Source: Squalus acanthias
Taxonomy: Eukaryota
Reading direction: 5' to 3'
DNA: 64,000 bases
Assembly (NCBI GenBank): GCA_030390025.1
Contig: CM059441.1
Coordinates: 40,486,001 to 40,550,000 of the forward strand
The translations under genes were made by a program, and so were the position numbers. Of this stretch, positions 7,879-60,976 are shown piece by piece. The notes beneath the pieces were generated by a model. That model made no database searches. It was not told where the DNA came from and saw only the letters and a program-made list of their open reading frames with translations. Position 1 is the first letter of the stretch, and each line of letters starts with the position of its first letter.

Positions 7879-8093
7879 TGTCATAAATCGCAAGTAACAA
7901 CTCAGGAAGTACTACTGGGTGGCCAGCTGGGGCGCCGTCCAGGGAGTATAAATACTCAGGCATGGGCCCACCTTGGGCAGAGACAATCTGGAAACAGGAA
8001 GCTAGTGACTGCTAACTAGACCGCCATGTTTTGTTACAAGTTGATTAAAGCCTTGCTTTATGTTCAAGTGCGTAGTGAGTCTTTGTTACGTCA
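7879..8093 (+). repeat. 5' LTR
   Basis: tgtcataaatc...gttacgtca; contains TATAAATA and ATTAAA. Confidence 0.95.
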
Positions 8094-8193
8094 ATTTAAT
8101 CAACTTGATATCGTCTCCACGCTTTGGGTGATTCGGAACAACCAGCTGCAACTCGAACCACAGAAGGGAACTTGGGCAAGAAACTGATCCATC

Positions 8194-12113: not shown

Positions 12114-12159
12114 TCCGTTAAAGGAAGACTGGACTTCCAAACCTTTTAGGGAGGAAGAA

Positions 12160-12374
12160 TGTCATAAATCGCAAGTAACAACTCAGGAAGTACTACTGGG
12201 TGGCCAGCTGGGGCGCCGTCCAGGGAGTATAAATACTCCGGCATGGGCCCACCTTGGGCAGAGACAATCTGGAAACAGGAAGCTAGTGACTGCTAACTAG
12301 ACTTCCATGTTTTGTTACAAGTTGATTAAAGCCTTGCTTTATGTTCAAGTGCGTAGTGAGTCTTTATTACGTCA
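12160..12374 (+). repeat. 3' LTR
   Basis: Direct repeat of 7879-8093, followed by TSD gcccc. Confidence 0.95.
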
Positions 12375-17832: not shown

Positions 17833-18700
17833 AGAGTGTCTGCAGGTACAGGCCGATACCTGTAGGTGGACAAGATTCAGCTGGAGGGACAGTGAATTTG
17901 CAGAGTGTACTGGATTTACTAATAGAGGCAGGGTTCCACTTTCAGACATTTAAACGAAATCAGGACTTTTTTTTAAAAGGATTATTTCAACGTTTATAAT
18001 AAGGTATGTTTGGTGAGTTACTGTGGAAACCTTGTTTATCTGATGAGTTATGATGTCTGAGTAACTGATGATAAATGAGCTAATTTTTAAGTTGTGAGGG
18101 TCTTTCTTGGTCAGTGAGATAAACATGGAATTCTGTACTATACCCACTGACTGTTCTAATGTATCAGTGGGCGCTGTATTTTCCTACAAAGGAAGCAAAC
18201 AGAGTTTGCCCAATCTCAAAATTTTCAAAATAAGTCCCAAGAGTTTAAATATCGGTCAGTGGTCATTTAGATTTAAGGTTCGGACTCGCCATAACCCCAG
18301 ATTATGATTTTCCTACAGTTATGGAGCTATTTCAGCCCTTTAACCCTGTCACTCGGCACTTGCCCCAGTTGTGTGTTTCACTGTGAAATGTGAATACTGC
18401 GAATCCCAGTGCTGCTGCAGACAAAGACTGACTCAGTGTTCCTCAACCATTTCATATCAATTTTTTCCTCCCATCTTTGTTGGTCTGTCTTGTGCTGATT
18501 GTCCCTCTTTCAATTTGATAAAGCATAAAGGCAAAAGGCAACCCATTACCCAGTGAGGACTTTGCATCTGTCTTCACAAAGGAAGCGGATGATGTGAAGG
18601 TTACACTAAAAGAGGAGAGGGAAGTTATGGACAGGATAGTAATAGATAGAGGACGTACTAAAAGAGTTAGCATTACTGCAAGTTGGTAAGTCACCTGGTC

Positions 18701-21700: not shown

Positions 21701-22035
21701 GAAACGCTTCAAGGACACCCTCAAAGCCTCCTTGAAAAAGTGTAACATCCCCACCGACACCTGGGAATCCCTGGCCCAAGACCGCACAAAGTGGAGGAGA
21801 AGCATCCGGGAAGGCGCCAAGCACCTCGAGTCTCTTCGCCGGGAGCAAGCGGAGGCAGTGCAAGGAGCGCACGTCAACCCAAGCACCCCACCCACCCGTC
21901 CCTTCAACCACCGTCTGCCCCACCTGTAACAGAGACTGTAGGTCCCGCATTGGGCTCATCAGTCACCTGAGAACTCATTTTTAATGTGGAAGCAAGTCAT
22001 CCTCGGTTCCGAGGGACTGCCTAAGAAGAAGTAAG
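18701..22035 (+). mobile_element. Near full-length RTE-clade LINE (single APE-RT ORF, disrupted) in APOBEC2 intron 1
   Basis: MKFGTWNVRTL endonuclease start, GDFNARVG, GNYRGVSLLS, QGCVIAP, LQYADDA, C-terminal CPTC..C...HLRTH; (aag)n tail; several stops and frameshifts; flanked by a 98-bp duplication. Confidence 0.92.
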
Positions 22036-22319
22036 ACACTAAAAGAGGAGAGGGAAGTTATGGACAGGATAGTAATAGATAGAGGACGTACTAAAAGAGT
22101 TAGCATTACTGAAAGTTGGTAAGTCACCTCGTCCGGATGGAATGCATTCTAGGTTGCTGAAAGAAGCAAAGGTAGAAATAACGGAGGCATTAGCACAATC
22201 TTTCAATTAGCATTGAATACAGGAGTAGTGCCGGAGGACTGGAGGGTTGCTAATGTTATACCACTATTCAAGAAAGGGGAAAGGGATAAACTAGGAAACT
22301 ACAGGCCAGTTAGTCTTAT

Positions 22320-24057: not shown

Positions 24058-26461
24058 ATTTTTTTTTTAATTCATTCATGGGATGTGGGCGTCGCTGGCA
24101 AGGCCAGCATTTATTGCCCATCCCGAATTGCCCTTGAGAAGGTGGTGGTGAGCCACCTTCTTGAACCGCTGCAGTCCGTGTGGTGAAGGTACTCCCACAG
24201 TGCTGTTAGGGAGGGAGTTCCAGGATTTTGACCCAGCGACGATGAAGGATCGGCGATATACTTCCAAGTCAGGATGGTGTGTGACTTGGAGGGGAACATA
24301 GAAAAATAGGAGCAGGAGTAGGCCATTCGGCCCTTCGAGCTTGCTCCACCATTCAATATGATCATGGCTGATCCTCGATCTCAATACCATATTCCCGCTC
24401 TCTCCCCATACCCCTTGATGCCTTTTGTGTTTAGAAATCTATCTATCTCCTTCTTAAATATATTCAGTGACTTGACCTCCACAGCCTTCTGTGGTCGAGA
24501 ATTCTTGGAGGTGGTGATGTTCCCATGCGCCTGCTGCCCATGTCCTTCTATGTGGTAGAGGTCGTGGGTTTGGGAGGTGCTGCCGAAGGAGCCTTGGTGA
24601 GTTGCTGCAGTGCATCTTGTAGATGGCACACACTGCAGCCACGGTACGCAATGATGGAGGGAGTGAATGTTTACGGTGGTGGATGGGGTGCCAATCAAGC
24701 GGGCTGCTTTGTCCTGGATGGTGTCGAGCTTCTTGAGTGTTGTTGGAGCTGCACTCATCCAGGCAAGTGGAGAGTATTCCATCACACTCCTTACTTGTGC
24801 CTTGTAGATGGTGGAAAGGCGTTGGGGAGTCAGGAGGTGAGACACTCGCCGCAGAATACCTAGCCTCTGACCTGCTCTTGTTGCCACAGTATTTATGTGA
24901 CTGGTTCAGTTAAGTTTCTGGTCAATGGTGACCCCCAGGATGTTGATGATGGAGAATTTGGTGATGGTAATGACATTGAATGTCAAGGGGTGGTGGTTAG
25001 CCTCTCGCTTGTTGGAGATAGTCATTGCCTGGCACTTGTGTGGCGCGAATGTTACCTGCCACTTATCAGCCCAAGCCTGAATGTCGTCTAGGTCTTGTTG
25101 CATGCGGGCATGGACTGCTTCATTATCTGAGGAGTTGTGAATGGCACTGAACACTGTGCAGTCATCAGCGAACATCCCCATTTCTGACCTTATGTTGGAG
25201 GAAGGTCATTGATGAAGCAGCTGAAGATGCCAGTGTTGTAGCTGTACCCAGCAACCCAGCACAGGCCTAGGACACTGCCCTGAGGAACTCCTGCAGCGAT
25301 GTCCTGGGGCTGTGATGATTGACCACCAACCACCACAACCATCTTCCTTTGTGCTAGGTATGACTCCAACCAGTGGAGAGTTTCCCCCCTGATTACCATT
25401 GACTTCAGTTTTACTAGGGCTCCTTGATGCCACACTCGGTCAAATGCTGCCTTGATGTCAAGGACAGTCACTCTCACCTCACCTCTGGAATTCAGCTCCT
25501 TTGTCCATGTTTGGACCAAGGCTAAAATGAGGTCTGGAGCCGATGGGCCTGGCAGAACCTGAACTGGGCATCAGTGAGCTGGTTATTGATGAGTAAGTGC
25601 CGCTTGATAGCACTGTCGACGTCACCTTCCATCACTTTGCATCTACTAGAGAGTAGACTAATGGGGCGGTAATTGGCCGGATTGGATTTGTCCTGCTTTT
25701 TGTGGACAGGACACACCTGGGCAGCTTTCCACATTGTTGGGTAGATGCCAGTGTTGTAGCTTTACTGGAACAGCTGGACTAGAGGCGCGGTTAGTTCTGG
25801 AGCACAAGTCTTCAGCACGATAGCCGGGATGTTGTCGGGGCCCATAGCCTTTGCTGTATCCAGTGTGCTCAGCCATTTCTTGATATCATGTGGAGTGAAT
25901 CGAATTGGCTGAAGACTGGCTTCTGTGATGGTGGGGACCTCGGGAGTAGGCCGATATGAATCATCCACTCGGCACTTCTGGCTGAAGATGGTTGCAAACG
26001 CTTCAGCCTTGTCTTTTGCACTCAAATGCTGGGCTCCACTATCATTGAGCATGGGGATATTCATGGAGCCTCCTCCTCCTGTTAGTTGTTTAATGATCCA
26101 CCACCATTCAGGACAGGATGTGGCAGGACTGCAGAGCTTTGATCTAATCTGTTGATTGTGGGATCACTCAGCCCTGTCTATAGTATGCTGCTTCCGCTTT
26201 TTAGTATGCATGTAGTCCTGTGTTGCAGCTTCCCCAGGTTGGCACCGCATTTTTAGGTACGCCTGGTGCTGCTCTTGGCATGCTCTTCTACACTCCTTAT
26301 TGAACCATGGTTGGTCCCCTGGCTTGATGGTAATGGTAGAGTGAGGGATATGCCGGGCCATGAGGTTACAGATTGTGGTGGAATACAATTCTGCTGCTGC
26401 TGATGGCCCACAGCGCTTCATGGATGCCCAGTTTTGAGCTGTTAGATCTGTTCTGAATCTG
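24058..26461 (-). mobile_element. 5'-truncated copy of the tRNA-headed CR1/L2-group LINE, with a nested CR1 tail (~24296-24503)
   Basis: [28 protein letters not shown]; 3' end gggcaataaatgctggccttgccagcgacgcccacatccc plus poly(A). Confidence 0.85.
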
Positions 26462-28277: not shown

Positions 28278-29043
28278 GGCCCGGAATTTGCGGTTGTGAT
28301 GACGGTGAACCTGTCAGCATTTACCGTCACTACTCTGTGAAACTGACAGCAATTTCTGGCGTCCGCACGTGCGCAGTTAAATGAGGAAATCCTGAAGTTG
28401 CTGTCAGAGATTCCCCGCTCCTCCACAGGGTCCGCTGTTGAAGTTCTCGCAGATGAAAATCTTAGAAATCACTTGAATTGACGTGAACTTCCACTTTTTG
28501 CTCTCTGATCTAGCCGTAAAAACCCACAAAAAAGTTAAGCCTTGTTGAATGAGGTGTAACTGGGTTTTTAATGGTATACTAAGTCATATTTACTGCTGAA
28601 CAGCCTATCTGGCCCTGAAAAACTAATTTTATATTTGTGGAATGCCAAATTTCACCATTATGATAAAAATTCCCATAGATTTTTAAAATAATAAAATGTT
28701 TTTAAGTTGTTTTATGATATTTCATCTTCTACCTTAAACCCATGTGTATGCCCCAATCTTTATTTTGTTCTCTATAAAATGATTAAAAAGTGAAGGATAA
28801 TCAGTGCTTTTTACTTCCGGGTTTGCTGTCTGTGAGAATTCTTCAATGTGATTGGCTGCTTAGCCTGCTTGATGACGTCACTGTTGCTGAACGGTGGAAA
28901 TCCCCACTAGATGGCACCAGAATGAAATTAACGTCAGGAAAGGTGAAATCGACGTCACAGAGATCGCTAGATCTTTGTGGGCAGCTTTCTTCGAGGTCAG
29001 TGGCAAATGCCGTCACTTCGTCACTGACCGCAAAATCCGGACC
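28278..29043. mobile_element. Harbinger-like MITE ending 47 bp upstream of APOBEC2 exon 2
   Basis: TIRs ggcccggaatttgcggt ... accgcaaaatccggacc; flanks ttt and att. Confidence 0.75.
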
Positions 29044-29090
29044 ATTGTATCCTTGCTATGTCCACTAACATCTGCTTCTTTCTTTTCCAG

Positions 29091-29625
29091 ACAACGCATG
29101 GCATCCCATTACTTCAAGTTCCAGTTCAAAAATGTAGAATATTCTTCAGGAAGGAATAAAACATTTTTGTGCTATTCAGTGGAGCAACAGGGCACGGAGT
29201 GCGAGAGGTTGGAGGGATACGTGGAGGATGAGCACACAGGCACACACGCAGAAGAGGCCTTCTTCACAAACATCTTCCAGAGGTGCGATGGCAGCCTGAG
29301 CTACTCCATCATTTGGCATGTGTCCTCCAGCCCTTGCAACACGTGTGCTTCTAAAATCGCTGAGCAACTGAGCAAGTGCCCCAATGTTCACCTTACCATC
29401 TTCACGGCCCGCTTGTTCATGTGGGAAGAGCCCGAGATCCAGCAAGGCCTACGGCAGCTGCAAGCAGCCGGCTGTCGATTGAGGATCATGAAGGCTTCGG
29501 AGTATAATTACTGCTGGAACACCTACGTCGAAAACGAGGGGGAGGCTTTCGCGCCTTGGGAGGACCTTCAAGACAGCAGCATGTTTTACGAAGGGAAACT
29601 AAATGAAATTCTGCAACATGCCTAG
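29091..29625 (+). CDS. APOBEC2: APOBEC2 coding exon 2, zinc-dependent cytidine deaminase fold
   Basis: Branch-like ctaac (29065-29069), polypyrimidine tract and ttccag| acceptor at 29090. Translation has FKFQFKNVEYSSGRNKTFLCY, HAEEAFF (HxE), SSSPCNTC (PCxxC) and RLFMWEEPEIQ, all diagnostic of APOBEC2. TAG at 29623-29625, then donor AAG|gtgaga at 29629/29630. Spliced CDS is 654 nt = 217 aa. Confidence 0.97.
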
Positions 29626-32528: not shown

Positions 32529-35101
32529 CAATGTTCCCTGTAAGCTGCACTTTGTTCTGCATGGCCTGTTTCTTTTTTGTTATTCTTTCATGGGATGTGG
32601 GCGTCGCTGGCAAGGCCAGCATTTATTGCCCATCCCTAGTTGCCCATGAGAAGGTGGTGGTGAGCCGCCTTCTTGAACCGCTGCAGTCCGTGTGGTGAAG
32701 GTACTCCCACAGTGCTGTTAGGGAGGGAGTTCCAGGATTTTGACCCAGCGACGATGAAGGAACGGCAATATACTTCCCAGTCAGGGTGGTGTGTGACTTG
32801 GAGGGAAACTTGGAGGTGGTGGTGTTCCCATGCGCCTGCTGCCCTTGTCCTTCTAGGTGGTAGAGGTCATGGGTTTGGGAGGTGCTGCCGAAGAAGGTTT
32901 GGCGAGTTGCTGCAGTGCATCTTGTAGATGGTACACACTGGACCAAGGCTGTAATGAGGTCTGGAGCAGAGTGGTCCTGGCGGAACCTAAAACTGGGCAT
33001 CAGTGAGCAGGCTATTGGTGAGTAAGTGCTGCTTGATAGCACTGTCGATGACACCTTCCATCACTTTGCTGATGATTGAGCGTTGACTGATGGGGCTGTA
33101 ATTGGCCGGATTGGATTTGTCCTGCTTTTTGTGGACAGGACATACCTGGGCAGTTTTCCACATTGTCGGATAGTTGCCAGTGTTGTAGCTGTACTGGAAC
33201 AGCTTGGCTAGAGGCACGGCTAGTTCTGGAGCACAATTCTTCAGCACAACAGCCGGGATGTTGTTGGGGCCCATAGCCTTTGCTGTATCCAGTGCACTCA
33301 GCCGTTTCTTGATATCATGTGGAGTGAATATATTGGCTGAAGACTGGCTTCTGTGATGGTGGGGACCTCAGGAGGAGACCGATATGGATCATCCACTCAG
33401 CACTTCTGGCTGAAGATGGTTGCGAATGCTTCAGCCTTGTCTTTTGCACTCACGTACTGGGCTCCACCATCATTGAGGATGGGGATATTCATGGAGCCTC
33501 CTCCTCCCGTTAGTTGTTTAATGGTCCACCACCATTCACGAATGGATGTGGCAGGACTGCAGAGCTTTGATCTGATCCGTTGATTATGGGATCGTTTAGC
33601 CCTGTCTATAGCATGCTGCTTCCGCTTTTTAACATGCATCATGCATGTAGTCCTGTGTTGCAGCTTCCCCAGGTTGGCACCTCATTTTCAGGTACGCCTG
33701 GTGCTGCTCCTGGCATGCTCTTCTACACTCCTTGTTGAACCAAGGTTGGTCCCCTGGCTTGATGGTAATGGTAGAGTGAGGGGTACACCAGGCCATGAGG
33801 TTACAGATTGTGGTGGAATACAATTCTGCTGCTGCTGATGGCCCACGGTGCCTCATGGATGCCCAGTTTTGAGCTGCTAGATCTGTTCTGAATCTGTCCC
33901 ATTTAGCACTGGGTAGTGCCAGACAACACGATGGAGGATATCCTCAGTGTGAAGACGGGACTTTGTCTCCACAATGATTGTGCGGTGGTCACTGCTACCA
34001 ATGCTGTCATCGACGGATGCATCTGCGACAGGTAGATTGGTGAGGATGGGGTCAAGTAGGTTTTTCCCTCGTGTTGGTTCTCTCACCACCTGTTGCAGGC
34101 TCAGACTGGCAGCTATGTCCTTCAGGACTCGGCCAGCTCGGCCAGTAGTGGTGCTACCAAGCCACCCTTGATGATGGACATTGAAGTCCCCCACCCAGAG
34201 TACATTCTGTGCCCTTGCTACTCTCAGTGCTTCTTCCAAGTGGTGTTCAACATGGAGGAGTACTGATTCATCAGCTGAGGGAGGGCGGTAGGTGGTAATC
34301 AGCAGGAGGTTTCCTTGCCCATGCTTGATCTGAAACCATGAGACTTCATGGTGTCCATAGTCAATGCTGAGGACATCCAGGGCCACTCCTTCCCGACTGT
34401 ATACCACTGTGCCACCACCCCTAGTGGATCTGTCCTGCCGGTGGGACAGGACATACCCAGGGATGGTGATGGAGGAGTTTGGGACATTGGCTGAAAGATA
34501 TGATTCTGTGAGTATGACTATGTCAGGCTGTTGCTTGACTAATCTGTCGGACAGCTGTCCCAATTTTGGCACAAGTCCCCAGATGTTGGTGAGGAGGACT
34601 TTGCAGGGTTGACTGGGCTGGGAGTGCCGTTGTCGTGTCCGTAGCCGGTGCCGAGGTCGATGCCGGGTTGTCCGTCCAGTTTCATTCTTATTATTTTGTT
34701 TCATAGCGGTTTGTTAGAACTGAGTGGCTTGCTAGGCCATTTCAGAGGGTAGTTAAGAGTCAACCACATTGCTGTGGGTCTGGAGTCACATATAGGCCAG
34801 ACCAGGTAAGGATGGCAGATTTCTTCTCCTAAATGACATTAGTGAACCAGATGGGTTTTTACGACAATCCGATAGTTTCATTACTGATCCTAACTTTTTA
34901 TTCCAGATTTATTTAATTAACTGAATTTAAATTCCCCAGCTGCCGTGGTGGGATTTGAACTCACGTCTCTGGATCATTAGTCCAGGCCTCTGGATTACTA
35001 GTCCAGTTTTAATGCGCAGTCCCTTTAAATTTCTGCACATGCACAGTATTTACAATGTAAAAGCCGGTGAACGGCCTGTGCGAGACCTTGCAGAAACATT
35101 G
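32529..35101. mobile_element. hAT-type MITE interrupted by a LINE
   Basis: 8-bp TSD CTTGTAGG (32521-32528 and 35102-35109); imperfect TIRs caatgttccctgtaag ... cttgcagaaacattg. Confidence 0.8.
32573..35006 (-). mobile_element. tRNA-headed LINE copy with internal deletion (junction ~32940)
   Basis: APE ORF 33877-34704 (VLLTNIWGLVPK, ILTESYL, VGDFNVHH, SSDHR); B box GAGTTCAAATCC at 34951-34962 (-). Confidence 0.88.
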
Positions 35102-39244: not shown

Positions 39245-42200
39245 TTTTTTTTATTTGTTTATGGGATGTGGGCGTCGCTGGCAAGGCCAGCATTTATTGC
39301 CCATCCCTAATTGCCCTTGAGAAGGTGTTGGTAAGCCGCCTTCTTGAACCGCTGCAGTCCGTGTGGTGAAGGTGCTCCCACAGTGCTGTTAGGGAGGGAG
39401 TTCCAGGATTTTGACCCAGCGACGATGAAGGATCGGCGATATACTTCTAAGTCAGGATGGTGTGTGACTTGGAGGGGAACTTGGAGGTGGTGGTGTTCCC
39501 ATGCGCCTGCTGCCTTTGTCCTTATAGGTGGGAGAGGTTGCGGGTTTGGGAGGTGCTGCCGAAGAAGCCTTGGCGAGTTGCTGCAGTGCATCTTGTAGAT
39601 GGTACACACTGCAGTCACGGTGCGCCGATGGTGCAGGCAGTGAATGTTTAAGGTGGTGGATGGGGTGCCAATCAAGCGGGCTGCTTTGCCCTGGATGGTG
39701 TCGAGCTTCATGAGTGTTGTTGGAGCTGCACTCATCCAAGCAAGTGGAGAGTATTCCATCACACTCCTTACTTGTGCCTTGTAGATGGTGGAAAGGCTTT
39801 GGGGAGTCAGGAGGTGAGACACTCACCGCAGAATACCTAGCCTCTGACCTGCTCTTGTTTCCACAGTATTTATGTGGCTGGTCCAGTTAAGTTTCTGGTC
39901 AATGGTGACCCCCAGGATGCTGATGGTGGGGGATTCGGCGATGGTAATACCATTGAATGTCAAGGAGAGGTGGTTAGACTCTCGCTTGTTGGAGATAGTC
40001 AATGGCTGGCACTTCTGTGGCGCGAATGTTACCTGCCACTTATCAGCCCAAGCCTGAACATCATCCAGGTCTTGTTGCATGCGGGCATGGACTGCTTCAT
40101 TATCTGAGGAGTGGTGAATGGCGCTGAGCACTGTGCAGTCATCAGCAAACATCCCCATTTCTGCCCTTATGTTGGAGGGAAGGTCATTGATGAAGCAGAT
40201 GAAGATGGTTGGGCCTGGGACACTGCCCTGAGGAACTCCTGCAGCAATGTCCCGGGGCTGTGATGATTGACCTTCAACCACCACAACCATCTTCCTTTGT
40301 GCTAGGTATGAGTTAAGCCAGTGGAGAGTTTTGCCCCCAATTCCCATTGACTTCAGTTTTACTAGGGCTCCTTGATGCCACACTCGGTCAAATGCTACCT
40401 TGATGTCAAGGGCAGTCACTCTCACCTCACCTCTGGAATTCAGCTCCTTTGTCCATGTTTGGACCAAGGCTGTAATGAGGGCAGGAGCCGAGTGGTCTTA
40501 GTGGAACCCAAACTGGGCATCTGTGAGCAGGTTATTGGTGAGTAAGTGCCGCTTGATAGCACTTTCCATGACACCTTTCAACACTTTGCTGATGATTGAG
40601 AGTAGACTGATGGGGCGGTAATTGGCTGGGTTGGATTTGTCCTGCTTTTTGTGGACAGGACATACCCGGGCAGTTTTCCACATTGTTGGATAGATGCCAG
40701 TGTTGTAGATGTACTGGAACAGCTTGGCTAGAGGCGTGGCTAGTTCTGGAGTACAAGTCTTCAGCACGATAGCCGGGATGTTGTCGGGACCCATAGCCTT
40801 TGCTGTATCCAGTGCACTCAGCTGTTTCTTGATATCACGTGGAGTGAATCGAATTGGCTGAAGACTAGATTCTGTGATGGTGGGGACCTCAGGAGTAGGC
40901 CGATATGGATCATCCACTCGGCACTTCTGGCTGAAGATGGTTGCAAATGCTTCAGCCTTGTTTTTTGCACTCACGTGCTGGGCTGCACCATCATTGAGGA
41001 TGAGGATATTCATGTGGCCTCCTCCTCCTGTTAGTTGTTTAATGGTCCACCACCATTCACGACTGGATGTGGCAGGACTGCAGTGCTTTGATCTGATCCG
41101 TTGATTGTGGGATCGCTTAGCCCTGTCTATAGCATGCTGCTTCTGCTTTTTAGCATGCATGTAGTCCTGTGTTGCAGCTTCCCCAGGTTGACACCTCATT
41201 TTTAGGTACGCCTGTTGCTGCTCCTGGCATGCTCTTCTACACTCCTCATTGAACCAGGGTTGGCCCCCTGGCTTGATGATAATGGTAGAGTGAGGGATAT
41301 GCTGGGCCATGAGGTTACAGATTGTGGTGGAATACAATTCTGTTGCTGCCCCACAGCGCCTCATGGATCCCCAGTTTCGAGCTGCTAGATCTGTTCTGAA
41401 TCTATCCCATTTAGCACAGTGGTAGTGCCACAGAACACGATGGAGGGTGTCCTCAGTGTGAAGACAGGACTTCGTCTCCACAATGACTGTGCGGTGGTCA
41501 CTCCTACCAATACTGTCATGGACAGATACATCTGCGACAGGTAGATTGGTGAGGACGAGGTCAAGTATGTCCTCTCACCACCTGTCGCAGGCCCAGACTG
41601 GCAGTTATGATCTTCAGGACTCAGCCAGCTTGGTCAGTTGTGGTGCTACTGAGCCACTCTTGGTGATGGACATTGAAGTCCCCCACCCAGAGTACATTCT
41701 GTGCATCTTCCAAGTGGTGTTCAACATGGAGGAGTACTGATTCATCAGTTGAGGGAGGGCGGTAGGTGGTAATCAGCAGGAGGTTTCCTTGCCCATGCTT
41801 GACCTGAAGCCATGAGAATTCATGTGGTCTGGAGTCAATGTTGAGGACTCCCAGGGCCACTCCTTCCCGACTGTATACCACTGTGCTGCCACCCCTGGTG
41901 GGTCTGTCCTGCCGGTGGGACAGGACATACCCAGGGATGGTGATGGAGGAGTTTGGGACATTGGTTGAAAGGCATGATTCTGTGAGTATTCACTATGTCA
42001 GGCTGTTGCTTGACTAGTCTGTACGACAGCTCTCCCAATTTTGGCACAAGTCCCCAGATGTTGGTGAGGAGGACTTTGCAGGGTTGACTGGGCTGGGTGT
42101 GCCATTGTCGTGTCCGTAGCCGGTGCCGAGGTCGATGCCAGGTGGTTCGTCAGGTTTCATTCTTTTTATTGTTTTTTGTAGCGGTTTGTTATAACTGAGT

Positions 42201-42517
42201 GGCTTGCTTGGCCATTTCAGAGGGCAGTTAAGAGTCAACCACATTGCTGTGGGTCTGGAGTCACATATAGGTCAGACCAGGTAAGGACAGCAGATTTCCT
42301 TCCTTAAAGGACATTAGTGAACCAGATGGATTTTTACGACAATCCGATAGTTTCATGGTTACCATTACTGATACTAGTAATTATTCCAGATTTATTTAAT
42401 TAACTGAATTTAAATTCCCCAGCTGCCATGGTGGGATTTGAATTCACGTCTCCGGATCATTAGTCCAGGCATTCTGGATTACTAGCCCAGTGACATTACC
42501 ACTACGCTACCGTTCCC
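39245..42517 (-). mobile_element. Near full-length single-ORF (APE-RT) LINE with tRNA-derived 5' head
   Basis: Head at 42421-42517 (A box TAGCGTAGTGG, B-box-like GAATTCAAATCC); APE and RT in ORFs 41621-41881, 40498-41481, 39823-40467 and 39307-39822; poly(A) tail. Confidence 0.9.
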
Positions 42518-45490: not shown

Positions 45491-46149
45491 GTATCAGGCC
45501 ACAGAATCCAAATGTTAATTCCAGAAACTAAACTGAACTGAATGAAAGACATGGGAAAAGTCAGTAGGATATACATTCCCAAGCAAAAAGGTCTGCCATT
45601 CAATTGAGTTCACAGGTGCAATGCAAGAGATGTTTGCATTCCATACTAATGAGCAGGTGTTCACACACCAGTTGTTTTCCCAGGACTTGTTAATCTATTA
45701 AACAATGTATATTTTGAACAACTTCTACAATGAACCGCCATTGATGGTTCGGCCATTTAAGATGTAATGCATTCATCTGCAAGAGCTTGTTTACTTTGAG
45801 ACTTGCTAGTGGTTAAAGTCTTTCCCATGTCTGATTGGCATGAGTTGGAGCCTACAAATAAAGTACCTATCATCCTTCAGAGAACCAAAAATATGGATTA
45901 ACACCTAAAACCAAGGTTTTGCATTTAGGCTTATAAAATAGTCCTATACCTCTCCCGATTTTCATTTCCAGTGAAGTCAATAGAAATGAAAATTGGGAGA
46001 GATGTACAACGGACGATGGAATCGATATCGCCCATTTTGCACTATCGTCCAAAGTCCCAATTCCCCTCATTGAGTGGCATTTGCTCAGTAATATATGAGA
46101 AAGCCGTGTGATTCCTGGAGCTGGAGCCTGCAGTCTAGCAGTAGACATT

Positions 46150-46883
46150 GGCCCTGAAATTCGCCTCTCCGGCTTGCCGCGGGGGTAAGGATCGCGCGCG
46201 CACTTACCTACCGCGCCTGCCGTTGACCTCTGGGCCCACGGGAACTTCAGCTCCTGGGCCTGCTCCAAGTGCCGGCGCGCAGTGCTTGCGTGTTCCAGGG
46301 GCGCAGTTAGTGCGATGCGTCCCCTGGGATCACGTGGGCCATGGAGAGCCAATGGCAGCAGACCATCTTTCATTCATAGATTTGACAGGATTGAAATCGG
46401 CCCCAAAAGAACAGCTAAACTTAAAATAAATTTTTTAAAAACCATCACATTTATAAAATAACTATAAGTTAAATAAATTAACTACTTTAAACAAAAATTT
46501 AAATTTTTGAAAAAATTAAAATACTTTTTAAGAGTGCTAAAAATAAACTTACCTTTCTTTAAAGTATCTAAAAAAGATAAACTTGTTGAAAATTTTTTTA
46601 AATTATAATTAATTAACCACTTACCTTGTTGAAAACGGGTCCTGCGCCTCCTTTTTAAAAGCGCAGGTTCTTCAATACTTACCCTCCCGTAGAAACCTGA
46701 AAAAAAACCTAAGTTTGCTGCATGCGCGCAGCCTCTACCGCGCACGCGGTTCACCTCTGAACCGCTCCCTTCACCAGACTGGAAGTTCCAGTTTCCCGCG
46801 CATGCAGGAAACCGGCACTTCAGGAGGCCTTATGGGTGAGTACACAGCGCGTACTCACCCGGCAAGGGCCGAATTTTTGGCCC
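46150..46883. mobile_element. Harbinger-like MITE, family copy A
   Basis: att|ggccctgaaattcg ... cgaatttttggccc|att. Confidence 0.85.
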
Positions 46884-47769
46884 ATTCTGTGTAAGTTGGG
46901 ATGATTTCCTCGGGCTGTTTTTTGAATGCATTTACAGTTTAAGCTAGAAGCACCAACCAGCCAAAATATTTTTGCATCTATTTACAATGTCGTCACCAGA
47001 CGAGATCATTCCAAAGGTATTGCCAAAAGTGACACACATATTAAAATCTAGCTAAATGCACATTTTGAATGAAAGTTCTGTGACTGAAATACTATGGAGT
47101 TAGCCAGTAGACCGTAGATAGAATTGTCCTTTGAAACTGGCCACAATTCAAATACTCTTCTGATATACCAGCTTTTTATTTCCTAATGTTCCAGTAATCC
47201 TAACAAAATATTACAGGGAACTTAATCCTAAAGTTCAGAAAGCAGAAATTAATTTAATTGGTGCAAATTGATATTCACATTTTAGGCACTTAATAGAAAT
47301 AGCCATCTAAAGGATTTTGATAGTACTGGGAAACACCTAGGCTAAAGCAGTAGCCCTGGGTAACAGCTTTAGACTTCATTGCTATATCCTGTACTGCCTT
47401 ACTCTTTATTGCATTGTTTTATGACATATGAGGGTCTCATATTTCCTTGTACGATTTCAGCTGTCCCAGTATTTATAGGTCAACCAGTCTAGGGGAGGGT
47501 ATACGAAAGACCAGGGTAATTCAGTCAGGACCACAATGAGGATGGAAACTTTTCTAATTATGTGGTAGCGATGAGTTGGCTGCAGTTAGCACTAATAGTC
47601 TTTTAATCTACATGTGGCTATCTGGTCTGGAATGCTTTGCAAACGTGTATGCAGTTCTGCATCAACTTAAAGCTAGTGTGCGTACGATAGGTGCAGCCTG
47701 AAATAAACAGGAGCTGCCAACCAGTACAGGACCCATTCACCCCTGCAATCCACGCCTAATAATCCTTTG

Positions 47770-48790: not shown

Positions 48791-49751
48791 CACCTTTCCA
48801 ATGCTCTACACTCACTATGATATATAAACAGTAATTGTATACTTTTCTTTATTATAGAATATTGGGTGCTGTATGCCAATCACTTCAATAGCTCTACGCG
48901 ATGGGACATCTGGGAAGAAGCTAAACTCATTTATTCTGTTTCACTTGGATTGAACTGAAAGAATTTGCTTTAACTTCTCTTACCATGCATCTTAAGTTTA
49001 TTGAACTACCATTTTCTGTTTGTTTCCAACTTCAGTTCTTAGAAAGTAGTCATTGTGACCTGTACCTTAGGAAAGGAGGTTCAGAGCCGTCTCATAATGC
49101 ACTGTTATTTCAAATATAGGACTGCCTTAATTCTGTAAAGTTTGTTTTTATATAGGTTTAGAATGTGGTAATAAAATGCTATGTTTCACATATAGAACGC
49201 CTGTGTTATATAGCAGATATCATAGCTGCCAATATGGGACTATATTCAATATCCAAAATAAGTCAGTCATCACCGACACTTTGTGTTTTACAATAAAATA
49301 TCGACTGCGTACCTTTGTGCTGCTCAGTTCTTTCATCGTCCAATGAAACTATTTGTCCTCCTAAGCACCAGATGTAAGTACCTTTAAATGCCTCTTCTCC
49401 AGGTTTAACACACTGCAGGCATTAGGGGCGCTGTATCTGAAATTGAGAAACTGGCTCCGACTATAAGGTTCCTGCTACGATTTTCATTTCTGTCCTAAAA
49501 CCTACACAAACTCATGAATTTCAAACCTTTCACAAAAAATTCTGTTCAGTCTAGAAATAATTGTTTTTTTGCTGCTGATTTCTCTTTCAATAGCAAGCAT
49601 TGCAGTTTATCCCCTTTCTACTCATACTTTGTTTTATTTAATAAACAGAATGGAATTCATACTAATAAAGAGCAATTTACATTAATAAACAGCATGTACA
49701 ACAGCCATAACTAATTCTCTAATAGACCAATGCATTTTTACAACATACATT

Positions 49752-51004
49752 GGGGCAGAAATTCGGGTCTCCACGGGTGAGTACGCGCTGTGTACTCACC
49801 CGTAGGGCCACCGGAAGTGCCGGTTTTGCGCATGCACTGTGCATGCACGGGAAACCGGAACTTCCAGTCTCGTGAAAGAAGGGGTTCGAGGGTGTTGAAG
49901 TTTCGACTTCCGAGTAAGACTCTTGAAACAATATCGTCAAAGAAGGCTTTATTATTATTTACTTGCTTGCAAGGAGAATGCAACCGTAGTCAAATAGCTA
50001 CGATGACACACTGAAGAATCACAGAAAATGGAAGATCTTATACACTGAAAATACAAGCTTCCCATATCACATGACATGTTGTTTAAGGTAAGCTAAGTTA
50101 AAAATTAAAAAAATAGAAATGCCTTACGATAAGACTAGCTAATCTCTACAGTAATTGGAGTCTGTCTGTCTGTTCTTCTTCTCCCACCAAGGCCAAGGCA
50201 CCTGGCTGTTTACTTCACTAGTCCTTGGTTATCTCAAGTTGATTAGAAGAAGCCTTTTTTTCTCTGTACTAGCAGACTTTGCAGACAGCATAGTCTGCAA
50301 GTTTAAATTCATCTCCATGAGAAACATAACAACTTTATCTTTTCCCAAACAAGTCAGAGTCGGCCATTTTGTATCACTCTTTTTCTCTAGGAAGCCATTT
50401 TGTCCGAGACAAAAACGACACTTCCACAAGGGTCAACCGCGTACGCCGGAGAGGCAGCGTGCATGCAGCGCACTTCCATTTTTTTTACAGGTTTTGGAGT
50501 GAGGGTAAGTACGGAGAAGCTGCGCGGGAAAAAAGGAGGCGCAAGGCCTGCTTTTAACAAGGTAAGTGGTGAATTAAGTACAATTTAAACATTTTTTCAA
50601 CAGGTTTATCTTTTTTACATACTTTAAAGAAAGGTAAGTTTATTTTTAGCACTGTTAAAAAGTGTAATTAATTTTTTCAAAAATTTAAATTTATAGTTAT
50701 TTTAAAAATGTGATTTAAAAAAAAAATTTATTTGAAGTTTTAGTGAGGTTTTGGGGCCGGTCTTCCTGTCAAAATCTATGAATGGAGATTCCCTGCTCCG
50801 ATTGGCTCTCCATGGCCCACGTGATCCCAGGGGACGCTTCGAACTAACTGCGCCCCTGGGATACGCAAGCACTGCGCGCCGGCAGCTGCAGGAGGCCCAG
50901 GAGCCGAATTCCACACGGGCCCGAAGCACAACGGCAGGCGCGGTATGTAAGTACGCGCGCGATCCTTGCACCCGCGGGAAGCCGGAGAGCCGAATTTCTG
51001 GCCC
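49752..51004. mobile_element. Harbinger-like MITE, family copy B (inverted, with ~0.5 kb extra internal segment)
   Basis: att|ggggcagaaattcgg ... ccgaatttctggccc|att. Confidence 0.85.
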
Positions 51005-51109
51005 ATTGTTTAGGGCTTCCTCATTAGTGAAATGGTCACTCCCTCTCAGTATGTTGTTGCTATGGCCGACGTGGTCTTTTGTTTAGAGAGGGGCTGCATA
51101 AGTTGTTCT

Positions 51110-51460: not shown

Positions 51461-51488
51461 CAAAAGGAAAGATGTTTGCTGAGATAAT

Positions 51489-52237
51489 GGCCCAGAAATT
51501 GGACTTCGATGGTTGCCGCGGGGGTAAGGATCCCCCGCGATATCGCACTCCGCGCCTACCTTTATGGTTTTGGCCCACACGAACTTCAGTTCCTGGGCCT
51601 CTCCCTGGTGCCGGCGCGCAGTGTGTGCGTGTCCCAGAGGCGCAGTTAGTTCGATGCGACCTCTGGGATCACGTGGGCCAGTTAGAGCCAATGGCAGCAC
51701 ACCATCTTTCATTCATAGTTTTGACAGGAAGAGCTGTCAAAGCTATGAATACAACTTGCCCCCAAAAGAACAGCTAAACCTCACTTAAATTTAAAAAAAA
51801 ACCATCACATTAATAAAATAACTATAGTTAAATAAATTAACCACTTTAAACAAAAATTTAAATTTTTGAAAAAATTTAAATTCTTTTTAAAAGTTATAAA
51901 AATAAACTTACCTTTCTTTAAAGTCTCTAAAAAAGATAAACCTGTTGAATTTTTTTAAAATAATACTTAATTAACTACTTACCTTGTTAAAAGGGGGTCT
52001 TACGCCTCCTTTCTTCATGTGTAAAATCTTCAACACTTACCTTCGCGTTCAAACCTGAAAAAAAAACTAAGTGTGCTGCGTGCGCACAGCCTGTAGTGCG
52101 CACGCGGTTCACTTAGGAACCGCCCCCTTCGCAATATTGGAAGTGCCGGTTTCCCGAGCATGCGCAGTGCACTTCGGGACCGAATATGGGTGAGTACACA
52201 GTGCGTACTCTCCCGTATTCGGACGAATTTCTGGGCC
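51489..52237. mobile_element. Harbinger-like MITE, family copy C
   Basis: aat|ggcccagaaattgg ... cgaatttctgggcc|aat. Confidence 0.85.
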
Positions 52238-52555
52238 AATACAAAAATATGCATTTTGTGGGATGTTCCAAAAATAATCAGCCATGTCACTAAATATAGT
52301 TGACCCCAGCAATGGATGGTTGTTCGTGGACTTTCTCTTTATCATAGGCATGTTCTCAGAAACCAATTGATTTCCAATATATTTAAATCACTAGTGATTC
52401 ATTTTGCTTAATTGAGGTAATCTTATATATTGGAATATTTAATTTCCCTCGGGCTCTACCATCCACACCTAGATCTTTGTCATCTTAAAGTAACGACTAT
52501 ATATTATATCAAGGATATCCAAGAATATGGCCAATCAGTCTGATTTGCACTGAAA

Positions 52556-55909: not shown

Positions 55910-56985
55910 TTTTTTTGTTTTTTTATTCATTCACGGGATCTGGGCGTCACTGGCAAGGCCAGCATTTATTGCCCATCTCTAGTTGCCCTCGAGAAGGTGG
56001 TGGTGAGCCACCTTCTTGAACCGCTGCAGTCCATTTAGTGAAGGTACTCCCACAGTGCTGTTAGGGAGGGAGTTCCAGGATTTTGACCCAGTGACAATGA
56101 AGGAACAGTGACATATTTCTAAGTCAGGATGGTGTGTGACTTGGAGGGGAACTTGGAGGTGGTGGTGTTCCATGCGCCTGCTGCCCTTGTCCTTCTCGGT
56201 GGAAGAAGTCAGGGGTTTGGGAGGTGCTGCTGAAGAAGCCTTGGCGAGTTGCTGCAGTGCACCTTGTAGATGGTACACACTGCAGCCACGGTATGCCAGC
56301 GGTGGAGGGAGTGAATGTTTAAGGTGGTGGATGGGGTGCCAAATCAAGTGGGCTGCTTTGTCCTGGATGGTGTCGAGCTTTTTGAGTGTTGTTGGAGCTG
56401 CACTCATCCAGGCAAGTGGAGAGTATTCCATCCCACTCCTTATTTGTGCCTTGTAGATGGTGGAAAGGCTTTGGGGAGTCAGGTGATGAGACACCCGCCG
56501 CAGAATACCTAGCCTCTGACCTGCTCTCGTTACCACAGTATTTATGCGGCTGGTCCAGTTAAGTTTCTGGTCAATGGTAACCCCCAGGATGTTGATGGTG
56601 GGGGATTCAGCGATGGTAATGCCATTGAATGTCAAGGGGCGGTGGTTAGACACTCGCTTGTTGGAGATAGTCATTGCCTGGCACTTGTGTGGTGCGAATG
56701 TTACCTCCCACTTATTAGCCCAAGCCTGAACGTCATCCAGGTCTTGTTGCATGGACTGCTTCATTATCTGAGGAGTTGTGAATGGCACTGAACACTGTGT
56801 AATCATCAGTGAACATCCCCATTTCTGACCTTATGGTGGAGGGAAGGTCATTGAGGAAGTAGCTGAAGATGGTTGGGCCTAGGACACTGCCAGAGGAACT
56901 CCTGCAGCGAAGTCCTGGGGCTGTAATAATTGACCTTCAACCACCACAACCATCTTCCTTTGTGCTAGGTATGACTCCAGCCAGT
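55910..56985 (-). mobile_element. 3' fragment of the tRNA-headed LINE family
   Basis: ORF 55979-56806 QAWANKWEVTFAPHKCQ...MEYSPLAWMSAAP; same 3' tail as the 39245 copy. Confidence 0.88.
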
Positions 56986-58258
56986 GTTGTGTTACAGAAG
57001 ACTGAGACAGGATTTTATTGAGGTATTCAAGATCCTTAAGGATATCAGTAACCCTGAGAAACTCTTTACCACCACCCTGAGAACAATGATGAGCGGGTAT
57101 GAGATGAAGCTCAGAAGAGGGCAGGTAAATGGACAGTTGATATATAACTACTTTACACAGAGGGTACTGAATGTTTGGAATGAACTGCCCCGGGAAGCAA
57201 TCAAAGCTGTTCATGAGTAATTGCAAGAGGGAGTTGGACAGGACTTTGGCACAAAAGCAATTGAGGGAAGACAGGCAGTGAACTGCGTGTTCAGTGTTTG
57301 AATGCTGAGTCAGCCAGGTGGAGTAAAATGCTTTTTTGTTTCCTTCAGCAACTTGATGCCAATTAGTGGCAACATGGCTATGGGGAAAGAGCGAGGGAGT
57401 GGGACTAATGGATAGCTCTTTGGAAGAGTCGGCACAGACTCGATGGGCTCTTTCTGTACTATTCTATAAATTAACTCACGGTCTTAGATCAAGCATACCC
57501 TGCTCCCTTATTTCTAAGTATGCTTGCTTCCCTTAGGAGGGTGTGTTTGGGGCCCATCAATGATTTTTATTAAAAGTTCTTACGAGTTTATTTTGTTTGT
57601 ATTTTATATTAGTAACGTTATGTCCTCCAGACTCCAGTGCACACAATGTTGGATAGTTCTCATCCTTGTGTCCTACTGTAATCTCGATGCAGATTACGCC
57701 ACACTAGACCAAGGGTCAGGGCTGGTCCCGAGTTGTTGTAAATTTGAGAGCAAACCTGCAGTTATTTTGTTCCAAATATTTGACCATTTGTGGAGTTGTT
57801 ACTTTCTCCTATCCTGGTGAACTGGTTCAACAGCTAGCTGGGCTTCTATATCCAGTCCCTCTGTACTGATCCAGCATTTCCCAGGTATGGCTGTAGTCCC
57901 TCTAAACTACATCACATTTTACAGAGCTCTCAGTTGAAAATCCGATCTTCAATAATAAATCATGACATCATAATGCAGCAGCACATATCTAACATTGTCA
58001 TTTACTTAAGTAAAAGAATTTAAAACTTTACAACCGTTATGTGCGCGAGGGTTACACTAAATGCTAAACCCCAGAGGACTGAATGGCCTTTTCAGCCTTC
58101 ATATTTTCCTTTCATACCATGTCTGTGAGTGCAACAAGGTAAATGTTGCAAAACAGGGACAACGCTGAACCGAATTTCACCTTGGTTCTAAGATGGCAAT
58201 AGCGCACCATTTCTACAACTTGCTTCAGCTGAGCAAACCATCAAGTCATTTCAGGATA

Positions 58259-60976
58259 AAAACAGAAAATGCTGGAAATACTCAGCAGGTCAGGCAGCAT
58301 CTGTGGAGAGAGAAAGAGTGTTAACGTTTCAGGTTGATGACCCTTCGTCAGAACTGGGAAAAGCTGGAGATGGAATAGGTTTTTAAGCAAGTGCAGGGGC
58401 AGGGAAAGGGGGGAGGGGAGGAAAGAACAAAAGGGAAGGTCTGATAGGATGGAAGGCAGGAGAGATTAAAAGACATTAAGAGATGATGCAAAGCAAAAGG
58501 AGATGGTAATGGGACAAGTTAAGAAACAAAAGATGGCCCTAGATGAAGTGTAAATGGCATCGGCAGAATGAAAGACAGCTGCCATGTGGGGGAGAAATAA
58601 ATAAATAAATTAAATGAGAGAAAAAAGGAAAGGGGCAGAGGTTATGGTCTGAAATTGTTGAACTCTATGTTGAGTCCAGAAGGCTGTAAAATGTTTAATC
58701 AAAAGATGGGGTGCGGTTCCTCGAGCTTACGTTGAGCTTCACTGGAACAGTGTAAAAGGCCGAGGACGGTGAGGTCTGAGTGGGAGTGGAGCGGAGAATT
58801 AAAGTCACAGGTGACCGGAAGCTCGGGGTCCCCCTTACGGACTGAATGGAGGTGTTCCGCAAAGCGGTCACCCAATCTGCGTTTGGTCTCCCCAATGTAG
58901 AGGAGACCACATCGTGAGCAGCGAATAAAGTATACTAAATTGCAAGAACAACAAGTAAATCGCTGTTTCACCTGGAAGGAGTGTTTGGGGTCCTGGACAG
59001 TGGGAAGGGTGGAGGTAAAAGGGCATGTGTTGCATCTCCTGTGCTTGCACGGGAAGGTGCCGGGCAAAGGGGATGGGGTGTTCAGGGTGATAGGGGAGTG
59101 GACCAGGGTGTCGCGGAGGGAGCAGTCCCTTCGGAATGCTGAAAGGGGAGGCGAGGGGAAAATGTGTTTGGTGGTGGGATCACGCTGGAGGTGGCGGAAA
59201 TGGCGGAGGATGATCTGTTGAATGTGGAGGCTGGTGGTGGGAACCCTATCGTGGTTCCGGGAGGGAGGGGAAGGGGTGAGAGCCAAAGTGCGGGAAATAG
59301 AACAGACACGGCCAAGGGCCGTAACAACCACATTAGAGGGGAATCTTCGGTTGAGGAAAAAGGAAGACATGTCGGAAGCACTGGTATGGAAGGTGGCATC
59401 GTCAGAGCAGATGCGGCAGAGATGGAGAAACTGGGAGAATGGAATAGAGTCCTTACAGGAAGCGGGGTGGGAGGAAATGTAGTCCAGGTAGCTGTGGGCT
59501 TGTAGTAAATGTTTGTCGATAGCCTATCCCCAGAGATGGAGACAGAGAAGTCAAGGCAGGGAAGGGAAGAGTCGGAGATGGACCATGTGAAGGTGAGGGA
59601 AAGTGAATGAAATTTTCTAGAGCAGGAAACAGCACCGATACAGTTATCAATGTACCGGAAAAAGAGGTGAGGGAGGGGACCGGAGTAGGACTGGAACAAA
59701 GAATGTTCCACACATCCCACGAAAAGGCAGGCATAGCTGGGACCCATGTGGGTTCCCATAGCAACACCTTTAATTTGGAGGAAGTGAGTGGAGTCAAAAG
59801 GAGAAGTTGTTCAATGTGAGAACAAGTTCAGCCAAGTGGAGGAGGGTGGTGGTGGATGGGGACTGGTTGGGCCTCTGTTCAAGGAAGAAGCGGAGCGCCC
59901 TCAGGCCATCCGGGTGGGGGACGGAGGTGTAGAGGGATTGGACGTCCATAGTGAAAAGGAGATGGTTGGGGCCAGGCAACTGTTAAAGTGACGGAGGGCG
60001 TCGGAAGAGTCGCGGATGTAGGTGGGAAGAGACTGGACAGGGAGAAAGGAGAGTCAAGATAGGAAGAGATAAGTTCCGTGGGGCAAGAACAGGCTGAAAC
60101 GATGGGTCTACTGGGGTAGTCCGGTTTGTGGATCTTGGGAAGGAAGTAGAAGCGGGCTGTGCAGGGTTGGGGAATTATGAGGTTGGCGGCCATGGGAGGG
60201 AAGATCTCCAGAGGAGATGAGGTCAGTGACGGTCTTGGAAACGGTGGCTTGATGTTCGGTAGTGGGGGTCATGGTCCAGGTGGAGGTAGGAGGCGGCGTC
60301 AAAGAGTTGGCGTTCAGCCTCCGCTAGGTAGAGGTCGGTTTGCCAAACAACAACAGCACCACCCTTGTCAACAGGTTTAATGACAAGGTTGTGGTTGGAT
60401 CTGAGAGAATGGAGTGCTGCAAGTTCAGAGGGAGGTAGGTTGGAGTGAGTGAGGGGAGCAGAGAAATTGAGACGGCCGATGTCACGCCGGCAGTTTGCAA
60501 TGAAAAGATCTAGAGAGGTTAAGAGGCCAGAGGGAGAGGTCCAGGTAGAACGAGAATTCTGAAAACAGGAGAAAGGGTCAGCTGTGCAGGGGACAGGGGA
60601 CCGGGGGGGGGGGGGGGGGGGGAAGGAGAAGACTCCTGGCCAAAGAAGTGGGCACGGAGACGAAGGTGGCGGAAAAAGAGCTCAGCATCGTGCCGAGCTC
60701 GAAATTCATTGAGATGGGGGCATAAGGGGATAAAGCTCAGGCCTTTGCTAAGGACTGATCGTTCGGGGTCAGAGAGGGGGCAAGGTCAGAGGGATAGTGA
60801 AAACACGGCAGGGGGTGGATTGGAAAAAGGGATGGGGTCAGAGGAAAGTGAAGGGGAAGAAGGTTCCAGATGGAAGTTGGTGTCCAAGAGTTGTTGAAGC
60901 TTGCGATCCATGTCACCTGAAAAGGAAGAAAAAAAGTTTTTTGTTAAAGTGTCGGATGAGGCGAAGGATGAAATGG
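58259..60976 (-). mobile_element. Penelope-like retroelement (RT + GIY-YIG, disrupted) with 15-bp TSD
   Basis: LPKIHKPD..RPIVS, TMDVQSLYTSVP, MGTHMGPSYACLF, FRYIDN, NLVYFIRCSRCGLLYIGET; TSD agtcatttcaggata at 58244-58258 and 60977-60991; hammerhead motif at 58320-58356. Confidence 0.9.

Follow-up and report, generated by a model that had tools for sequence, protein, structure and literature searches.

A tRNA-derived head on the ORF1-less Zenon LINE of Squalus acanthias: a candidate for transcription by RNA polymerase III

Introduction

Can a long interspersed nuclear element (LINE) that encodes its own reverse transcriptase (RT) serve as a template for RNA polymerase III (Pol III)? The question is raised by a locus at positions 39245–42517 on the minus strand of a 64,000-nucleotide (nt) stretch of Squalus acanthias DNA (assembly GCA_030390025.1, contig CM059441.1, positions 40,486,001 to 40,550,000; hereafter the window). 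A first-pass annotation of the window proposed that a LINE had captured the promoter of a short interspersed nuclear element (SINE), had been purged of Pol III terminators, and made a protein-coding transcript in need of cap-independent translation. The locus is a decayed full-length copy (3273 nt) of the elasmobranch Zenon LINE, and it opens with a head derived from tRNA-Ser(GCT). Judging from the sequence, we put the probability that Pol III transcribes the whole element, giving an uncapped RNA that is translated independently of a cap, at about 0.55.

Identity of the family

By sequence, the element is an elasmobranch Zenon LINE of about 3.3 kb without a first open reading frame (ORF1), and thus belongs to a family that is already published. 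The available passages of Stuart et al. 2026 (PMC13343379) describe ORF1-less Zenon elements with poly-A tails in elasmobranchs, coelacanth, and hagfish, state that this tail is unique to Zenon within the CR1 group, and report that elasmobranch Zenon had been absent from repeat repositories. The family in the window has a single ORF with apurinic/apyrimidinic endonuclease (APE) and RT domains, both recognized by Pfam. It lacks ORF1, as had been claimed; the remaining frames are of 120 codons or fewer. Its poly-A tails are short and frequently of the form T(n)A(m), and the first 400 nt of the window copy agree by eye with the consensus SquAca_Zenon-1.

The homologues are single proteins of 930–1050 residues, mostly encoded on contigs of 3.1–4 kb; those with a named host come from a sponge, a brittle star, amphioxus, crustaceans, and a butterfly, and no relative was found among the viral contigs searched. 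In an RT tree that contained no named Zenon reference, the family joins single-ORF invertebrate proteins (Amphiura, Branchiostoma, and Sycon; support 0.85–0.92), apart from shark CR1. Two close relatives (P0019 and P0020) match the shark family in their low Phe content (1.6–1.7% and 1.8%, respectively), which is at least 2.3% in the other full-length APE-RT homologues listed. Zenon-derived stretches of 66–85% identity are also present in four annotated shark proteins (P0014, aldo-keto reductase-like; P0089, anoctamin-7-like; P0096, CBS-like; P0121, LRRC32-like), reflecting either gene-model contamination or exonisation.

The family occupies 33.6 kb in 600 kb of unselected DNA from which the window was removed, which is about 5.6% of this sample; the genome measures 3.7 Gb. 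Forty loci were taken whole; 32 of them are complete within 3.1–3.4 kb and form, together with the window copy, a set of 33 full-length copies that diverge by 2.7–4.5% from the column majority (3.7% for the window copy). Target-site duplications scoring at least 5 bp were found in 4 of 29 full-length copies, as against 6.8% of mismatched pairs, and proved uninformative.

The tRNA-derived head

Read from 42517 toward 39245, the element starts with GGGAAC. Its first segment (42426–42517, minus strand) aligns with genomic tRNA-Ser(GCT) (loci L302 and L303) at z = 7.0–7.5, while the values for tRNA-Cys (3.7–5.0) and tRNA-Lys (1.4–2.7) are lower. On these alignments, the head is derived from tRNA-Ser(GCT), whether via a SINE or directly. 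By eye, it has AGT in the anticodon loop, an enlarged variable arm, and a broken acceptor stem. Its internal A and B boxes go back to a tRNA and form the arrangement of a type 2 Pol III promoter. The predicted A box TAGCGTAGTGG (42499–42509) and the B-box-like GAATTCAAATCC (42434–42445), both on the minus strand, are found where the first-pass annotation had placed them. The former is present in 19 of the 33 full-length copies, with CpG changes as the commonest other forms; the family B box is GAGTTCAAATCC (26/33), and the change in the window copy is private to it. The wide spacing between the two boxes is due to the long variable arm of tRNA-Ser.

An origin from tRNA-Thr, for which the AGT loop and a lead from MetaSINEs spoke, was set aside in favor of tRNA-Ser, the alignments covering tRNA-Ser, tRNA-Lys, and tRNA-Cys. 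Also rejected were a cloverleaf for the head and stable folding of the 5′ untranslated region (UTR) or body (z = +0.4 to −2.0, mostly not significant). ARAGORN called no tRNA in the window and a single one, antisense within an ORF, in 42 metagenome loci. Rfam returned no tRNA at the gathering score, no ribozyme, and no internal ribosome entry site (IRES) in the window and 16 relative loci. No ribozyme or IRES matched up to E = 10, and the tRNA model gave a weak match (20 bits, E = 2.7) to the head of the copy at 32573–35007. The genome also contains tandem arrays of tRNA-Ser(GCT) with a period of 1623 bp (G000:C26, about 40.5–41.9 Mb; C29, C2208, and C1484 are listed too), with 298 pattern matches genome-wide, and further arrays, repeating about every 1.78 kb, of similarly scoring tRNA genes, the sampled members of which are tRNA-Lys.

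The head had been claimed as the element's own part and not a nested SINE, and this claim is borne out by a fixed junction, by anchored copies, and by other species. Among 29 further copies retrieved by the endonuclease alone, the sequence extends to nt 14 or closer in 11; in one more, an insertion displaces the first 39 nt, and the other 17 break off at scattered positions in the same head or body. The upstream flanks share no alternative 5′ end. In a search with the head alone, 28 of 29 copies continue into the ORF. Exact matches to a 42-mer of the head number 766 for a younger variant and 1005 for an older one. In the positionally first 30 copies of each variant (60 in total), the head runs straight into the ORF in 24 younger and 10 older copies; 2 younger copies (one resuming within the ORF) and 14 older ones were classed as short forms, and 4 and 6, respectively, are deleted or interrupted otherwise. 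The start at GGG was found in 42 of the 60. By eye, the head opens every one of the seven elasmobranch consensuses in print, which represent five species of sharks and a ray, with the sequence of the variable arm changed. Two hagfish consensuses and one coelacanth consensus, the 5′ end of the latter being poorly supported, lack it, likewise by eye, and have runs of four T residues (T4) within the first 400 nt. Taken together, these comparisons show that the head is integral to this ORF1-less LINE, both throughout the family and across elasmobranchs.

A second insertion in the window (32573–35007, minus strand) had been cited as an independent witness of the head. Part of the head is indeed present, and the copy extends to 35007, one base beyond the end first given. 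It begins at element nt 27, inside the head and without the A box, and has an internal deletion of about 840 nt. Two further sister copies on the minus strand are 5′-truncated: one at 24061–26460, which is split by a CR1 fragment (24294–24504), and one at 55914–56986, which retains the 3′ 1.1 kb.

Avoidance of T runs on the sense strand

Runs of four or more T terminate Pol III, and the window copy was reported to have none on its sense strand. This holds: no AAAA occurs on the plus strand across 39245–42517. The transcript of the family is likewise free of shared T4, since no T4 column is common to two or more of the 33 copies, and 23 copies have no T4 at all. A single T4 had been reported for the LINE-derived sequence of the window's three sister copies. 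There are two, at 32989–32992 and 25524–25527 in the copies at 32573–35007 and 24061–26460, respectively, and each is private, differing from the other copies at its site.

The absence of T4 from the window copy is significant against mononucleotide shuffles (4.7 expected, P = 0.003) and not against dinucleotide shuffles (1.8, P = 0.15) or synonymous-codon shuffles (2.1, P = 0.10). For the family, we used the commonest codons and synonymous shuffles with five run measures. TT is depleted (74 versus 90.7 expected, P < 0.001), as are T3 (5 versus 11.4, P = 0.005) and windows with four T in five (1 versus 5.8, P = 0.027), while those with five T in six do not differ significantly (0 versus 1.9, P = 0.19). 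Runs of A show no significant depletion in the same shuffles. Where the next base is T, third-position T is chosen in 6 of 45 cases, as against 74 of 256 where it is A or C (CpG context left out; P = 0.029); for Phe, TTT is used in 3 of 18 codons.

The real signal is a graded avoidance of TT, TTT, and near-terminators that is absent from the RTE, CR1, and Penelope elements here. Their observed/expected (O/E) ratios against mononucleotide composition are 0.97–1.38 over TT, T3, and four-in-five T (TT 0.97–1.14, T3 0.98–1.2). The first-pass caveat that RTE is also poor in T runs is largely answered: the RTE family is T-poor and not run-depleted, and its only shared run is a T5 at the stop codon, its single T4. 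CR1 is rich in sense T runs, as stated (13 T4 in 920 codons). As wider controls, 160 loci from metagenomes and metagenome-assembled genomes (MAGs) yielded 133 that had an ORF of at least 450 amino acids and scored 120 bits or more in BLASTP. T4 is present in all 133 ORFs (20, 28, 14, and 1 in the four from the clade of Zenon), and the O/E ratios of Zenon for TT, T3, and four-in-five T (0.71, 0.32, and 0.10) lie below the control minima (0.80, 0.54, and 0.27). Animal-type LINEs were seen in many prokaryotic MAG contigs (L381–L460), probably as host contamination.

Start of translation

In the family frame, the APE-RT ORF (39307–42188, minus strand) spans 973 open codons between an in-frame stop (TAA in 32 and TAG in 1 of 33 copies) and the final stop. 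Its first in-frame ATG is codon 287 (41364–41362), which lies beyond the endonuclease. Because no AUG precedes this codon, non-canonical initiation is required for the APE-RT frame as read from the family sequence. Nine AUGs lie upstream of the ORF, and one opens an upstream ORF (uORF) of 48 codons in another frame (42014–42160), which overlaps the main ORF. The closest relatives with available DNA have a Met within 20 codons of the ORF start; the leader of the shark family is Arg-rich, like the Met-initiated leaders of these relatives.

The in-frame stop is followed by CAA/CTA-ACC-GCT-ACG (42177–42191), the probable non-AUG start region. The ACG codon is ATG in 4 of 33 copies and ACA in 3 of 33, the window copy among the latter; these are the two CpG decay products. 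The spacer from GCT to the endonuclease is 9, 15, or 18 nt, which keeps the frame, in 44 of 51 copies measured out of 71. Comparison by eye with other elasmobranchs shows a spacer of 15 or 18 nt in four other species, the AUG of the uORF in all five species, and a near-invariant body of about 150 nt (42192–42342) in the five, in which one stem pair reads A-U, G-U, or G-C. This body may be an IRES-like element that directs a GCT/ACG start, or a promoter element; alternatively, the frame may be reached by a −1 shift or by reinitiation from the uORF. By eye, the overlap has no X-XXY-YYZ slippery site, and its most frequent shared variant, at nt 414, is synonymous in the endonuclease frame; both observations count against the Pol II alternative discussed below, which includes such a shift. 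The missing AUG agrees independently with the non-canonical side of the translation first proposed, while the cap-independent mechanism itself is inferred.

The window copy is decayed: its ORF carries four premature stops, has lost 18, 17, and 6 nt in three deletions, and contains a frameshifting insertion of 1 nt. It ends with a short 3′ UTR containing AATAAA (39298–39293) and an A tail (39245–39306, minus strand).

Short SINE-like derivatives

Head and body are also found fused to the last 60–230 nt of the element. Eight such copies occur in the 600 kb of unselected DNA, as compared with one copy of head plus ORF. Their junctions are variable, with several recurrent types and with both head variants, and the breaks are mostly at the ORF start. 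Most of the junctions at loci L305–L334 and L461–L490 fall just after the codons GCT-ACA. The likeliest origin of the short forms is repeated internal deletion of the LINE, with the products afterward behaving as SINEs. For the proposed capture of a SINE promoter, this means that the tRNA head is integral, as supposed, and that the SINE-like copies look LINE-derived rather than like a demonstrated donor. The full-length element, with 3.3 kb and a 973-codon frame, is not a SINE2, which is short and non-coding; the derivatives of about 450 nt are both.

Identification of the element with a MetaSINE, a DeuSINE, or SacSINE1 was considered and rejected. Four motifs of the body gave no match in two supplements, and by eye the body does not resemble the Meta and Deu alignments in print; it is neither Meta nor Deu as far as visible there. 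In SacSINE1, a Deu body is joined to a tail with homology to L2-2_CM.

Transcription by Pol III and its alternatives

If Pol III transcribes the whole element, the cycle could run as follows. In every newly inserted full-length copy, TFIIIC would bind both boxes, so that the promoter travels with the element. Selection on master copies would have removed T4 and T-rich near-terminators, letting Pol III run through to the first T run past the A tail, where it would stop as it does for Alu. The conserved body would set ribosomes at or near GCT/ACG, skipping the nine upstream AUGs and the cap, and the APE-RT would copy its own RNA by target-primed reverse transcription. It would copy the deletion derivatives too, which would act as tRNA-SINEs born directly from their LINE. 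The start site fits such a cycle: full-length copies begin at the equivalent of tRNA +1, where the SINE-like short forms begin too. A further G before GGG, considered as a possible cap signature, is present in 6 of 46 and in 12 of 42 copies, and the first G itself is possibly cap-derived. T runs in the tails (up to 15 T in T(n)A(m)) were rejected as built-in terminators. In 54 tails surveyed (9 unclassified), longer T stretches go with shorter A stretches, and 1–2 T are found in 35 of the 45 that could be classified, a pattern that fits A>T change at the boundary after insertion.

Several points weigh against transcription by Pol III. The zero count of T4 in the family is not significant on its own (1.8 expected, P = 0.114). 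On one of the refuting checks originally proposed, the depletion of T4 alone is no greater than in codon-preserving shuffles (P of about 0.11), which counts in part against the proposal. The purging of terminators thus survives as a family-specific avoidance of TT, T3, and near-terminators, and not as a significant loss of T4. This avoidance is graded from TT upward without a step at four T. Three of six T-poor controls are also low (among them L389, with TT at 0.80 and one T4, and L202, with TT at 0.83 and four-in-five T at 0.27), and CR1 has a borderline deficit of TT and T3 under synonymous shuffles (P = 0.047 and 0.059). Part of the effect is compositional, given that T-rich ORFs make up most of the controls. 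T-rich non-canonical Pol III terminators are described in the available part of PMC4333407. If they act, a graded avoidance over 3.3 kb is expected, yet it would not be specific to Pol III. By eye, the body is more conserved between species than the A–B region, so that conservation is not specific to the boxes, and the B box of the HypSab consensus looks degenerate. With regard to translation, the fold of the body is not significant (z = −0.94), and the 3-nt spacer variants can be explained by AAT slippage. Three contig-level runs of putative RNA, whose coverage tracks the genomic copy profile, and one DNA read run show only that the family and the short-form joints are present. AATAAA, 45–50 nt ahead of the A tail, fits Pol II equally well, and the available part of PMC10886601 deems Pol III too weakly processive for long elements. 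Loss of ORF1 adds nothing for Pol III, as it is clade-wide in Zenon and hence not a result of head capture. In the L1 system, Pol III RNAs need no ORF1p (PMC2666806, in the part available). Such ORF1p-free RNAs fit transcription by Pol III and are no evidence for it, since headless Zenon also lacks ORF1.

The alternative that survives best, although we regard it as rather unlikely, is that the head was captured once and that Pol II transcribes the LINE, either from a promoter in the body or aided by chromatin opened by TFIIIC, with only the short derivatives using Pol III. Codon bias, or RNA processing through cryptic splice acceptors or U-rich cleavage elements, would then lie behind the avoidance of U runs, and ribosomes would reach the ORF by leaky scanning to ACG or by reinitiation or a −1 shift from the uORF. 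All precedent puts LINEs under Pol II (PMC5786205; the available part of PMC10886601). The non-significant T4 count, the graded depletion, and the similar T-poor controls agree with this explanation, as do the AATAAA before the A tail and the uORF AUG kept in five species. It is less successful with the start at the tRNA-equivalent +1 that full-length and short forms share. Moreover, comparable avoidance is missing from the other LINEs here, among them RTE, which is ORF1-less and poorer in T, and all 133 controls lie above Zenon. Nine upstream AUGs and the lack of an in-frame AUG also make cap-dependent scanning poor.

It is improbable that RNase P cuts a host read-through RNA at the tRNA-like 5′ end, in the way that ribozymes act in R2 and RTE, to leave an uncapped RNA of fixed start translated independently of a cap. 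Such cleavage would explain the sharp start near the tRNA +1, the anticodon and variable-arm hairpins that by eye are kept although the sequence has changed, and the missing AUG. RNase P requires an acceptor stem, however, and here the stem is broken by eye, the head has no cloverleaf fold, and ARAGORN rejects the heads; the avoidance of U runs would also be left unexplained. That the head-plus-ORF copies are chance chimeras, formed by insertion of a SINE at a truncated LINE or by template switching onto one, the true master having another 5′ end, draws on the 8-to-1 excess of short forms in 600 kb and is close to refuted, with a very small residual probability, by the single fixed junction, the lack of an alternative 5′ end in 29 copies, the five-species architecture, the joining of both head subfamilies to the ORF, and the variable junctions that mark the short forms as derivatives.

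Transcription by Pol III, which we favor on this balance, may belong to a larger picture: an autonomous protein-coding vertebrate retrotransposon that has been on Pol III since the shark/ray split, with a promoter from tRNA-Ser, a terminator-free length of 3.3 kb, an IRES-like non-AUG start, and SINEs formed by deletion. This whole we hold only tentatively, and would sooner bet against it than for it. If true, it would be a natural Pol III protein-coding gene, against the rule that assigns LINEs to Pol II and SINEs to Pol III. Pol III would make a multi-kilobase translated RNA in a vertebrate, from a family that makes up about 5% of a 3.7-Gb genome, and the family would offer both a naturally occurring element for cap-independent initiation at a non-AUG codon and a path that leads from LINE to SINE in a single step. 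Even under Pol II, the integral head, the AUG-less ORF, and the recurrent births of SINE-like forms were not found in the papers searched.

Neighboring features in the window

An APOBEC2-like coding exon (28891–29625, plus strand; Pfam APOBEC2, E = 3e-60) has the four Zenon copies around it on the opposite strand. A 5′-truncated RTE (18702–22035) lies within 18603–22133 on the plus strand, between copies of a 98-bp duplication that are 98% identical and unusually long for a target-site duplication. A long terminal repeat (LTR) retrotransposon (7879–12374, plus strand) has a Ty3/Gypsy-like domain order and 215-bp LTRs that are 98% identical, with protease, RT, RNase H, and integrase spread over several frames. 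Penelope-like elements with RT and GIY-YIG domains are located at 4050–5160 and 58257–60681 on the minus strand, one of them being the control family. Three copies of a 600–750-bp repeat (46142–46892, 49743–51012, and 51482–52238) are 70–80% alike and occur in both orientations.

Comparison with known systems

The family is known, and its promoter and translation anatomy appears to be new, as it was not found in the literature searched. The closest system is Zenon itself: SquAca_Zenon-1 is, in the available parts of PMC13343379, the same family, with no ORF1, with APE and RT, with a poly-A tail, and with a length of about 3.3 kb. The main text there has no match for "tRNA" or "polymerase III" and the supplement none for "tRNA", as far as these were available; the head, the avoidance of U runs, and the short derivatives are absent from its passages, in which a non-AUG start was not searched for. 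The open literature gave neither a Pol III-transcribed autonomous LINE nor a tRNA head on Zenon, with Repbase, Dfam, and subscription journals outside this scope.

If the RNA is uncapped and has a non-AUG start, the element resembles R2, RTE, and Ingi LINEs with self-cleaving ribozymes at their 5′ ends. Uncapped or non-AUG translation is known from these LINEs and from the dicistrovirus intergenic-region (IGR) IRES, which belongs to the same set. The element differs from them in that it has no Rfam match to a ribozyme or IRES up to E = 10, the head is retained in its full-length inserts, and a start-codon pseudoknot is not evident. Internally deleted, amplifying Zenon derivatives are known in Lepidoptera as the Persaeus SIDE, and these have neither tRNA homology nor a Pol III promoter in the available part of PMC6740152. 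A retrotransposon promoter derived from a small Pol III RNA has been described in TRIMp3 (Cassandra, Helenus, and Ajax; PMC10886601, in the part available). These are non-autonomous, non-coding elements of the LTR class, of 1.3 kb or less, with autonomous partners argued to use Pol II, and Pol III-promoter retroelements so far described are given there as non-coding.

RTE-1_DAn and related elements are LINEs of a single-ORF clade with a tRNA-like part that matches many SINE2 (PMC5786205); they belong to another clade and another host, and the comparison is by description, the position and function of the tRNA-like part not being stated there. The short forms come closest to SINE2 and bipartite SINEs such as Bov-tA (Kojima 2018, PMC5786205), with which they share a tRNA head, A and B boxes, a body, and a LINE tail. 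According to the same study, bipartite derivatives come only from RTE, Ingi, Vingi, and R2. The Zenon forms differ from SINE2 in that the head sits on an autonomous coding element, and the SINE-like forms appear to have arisen from it by deletion alone, with no later capture of a head.

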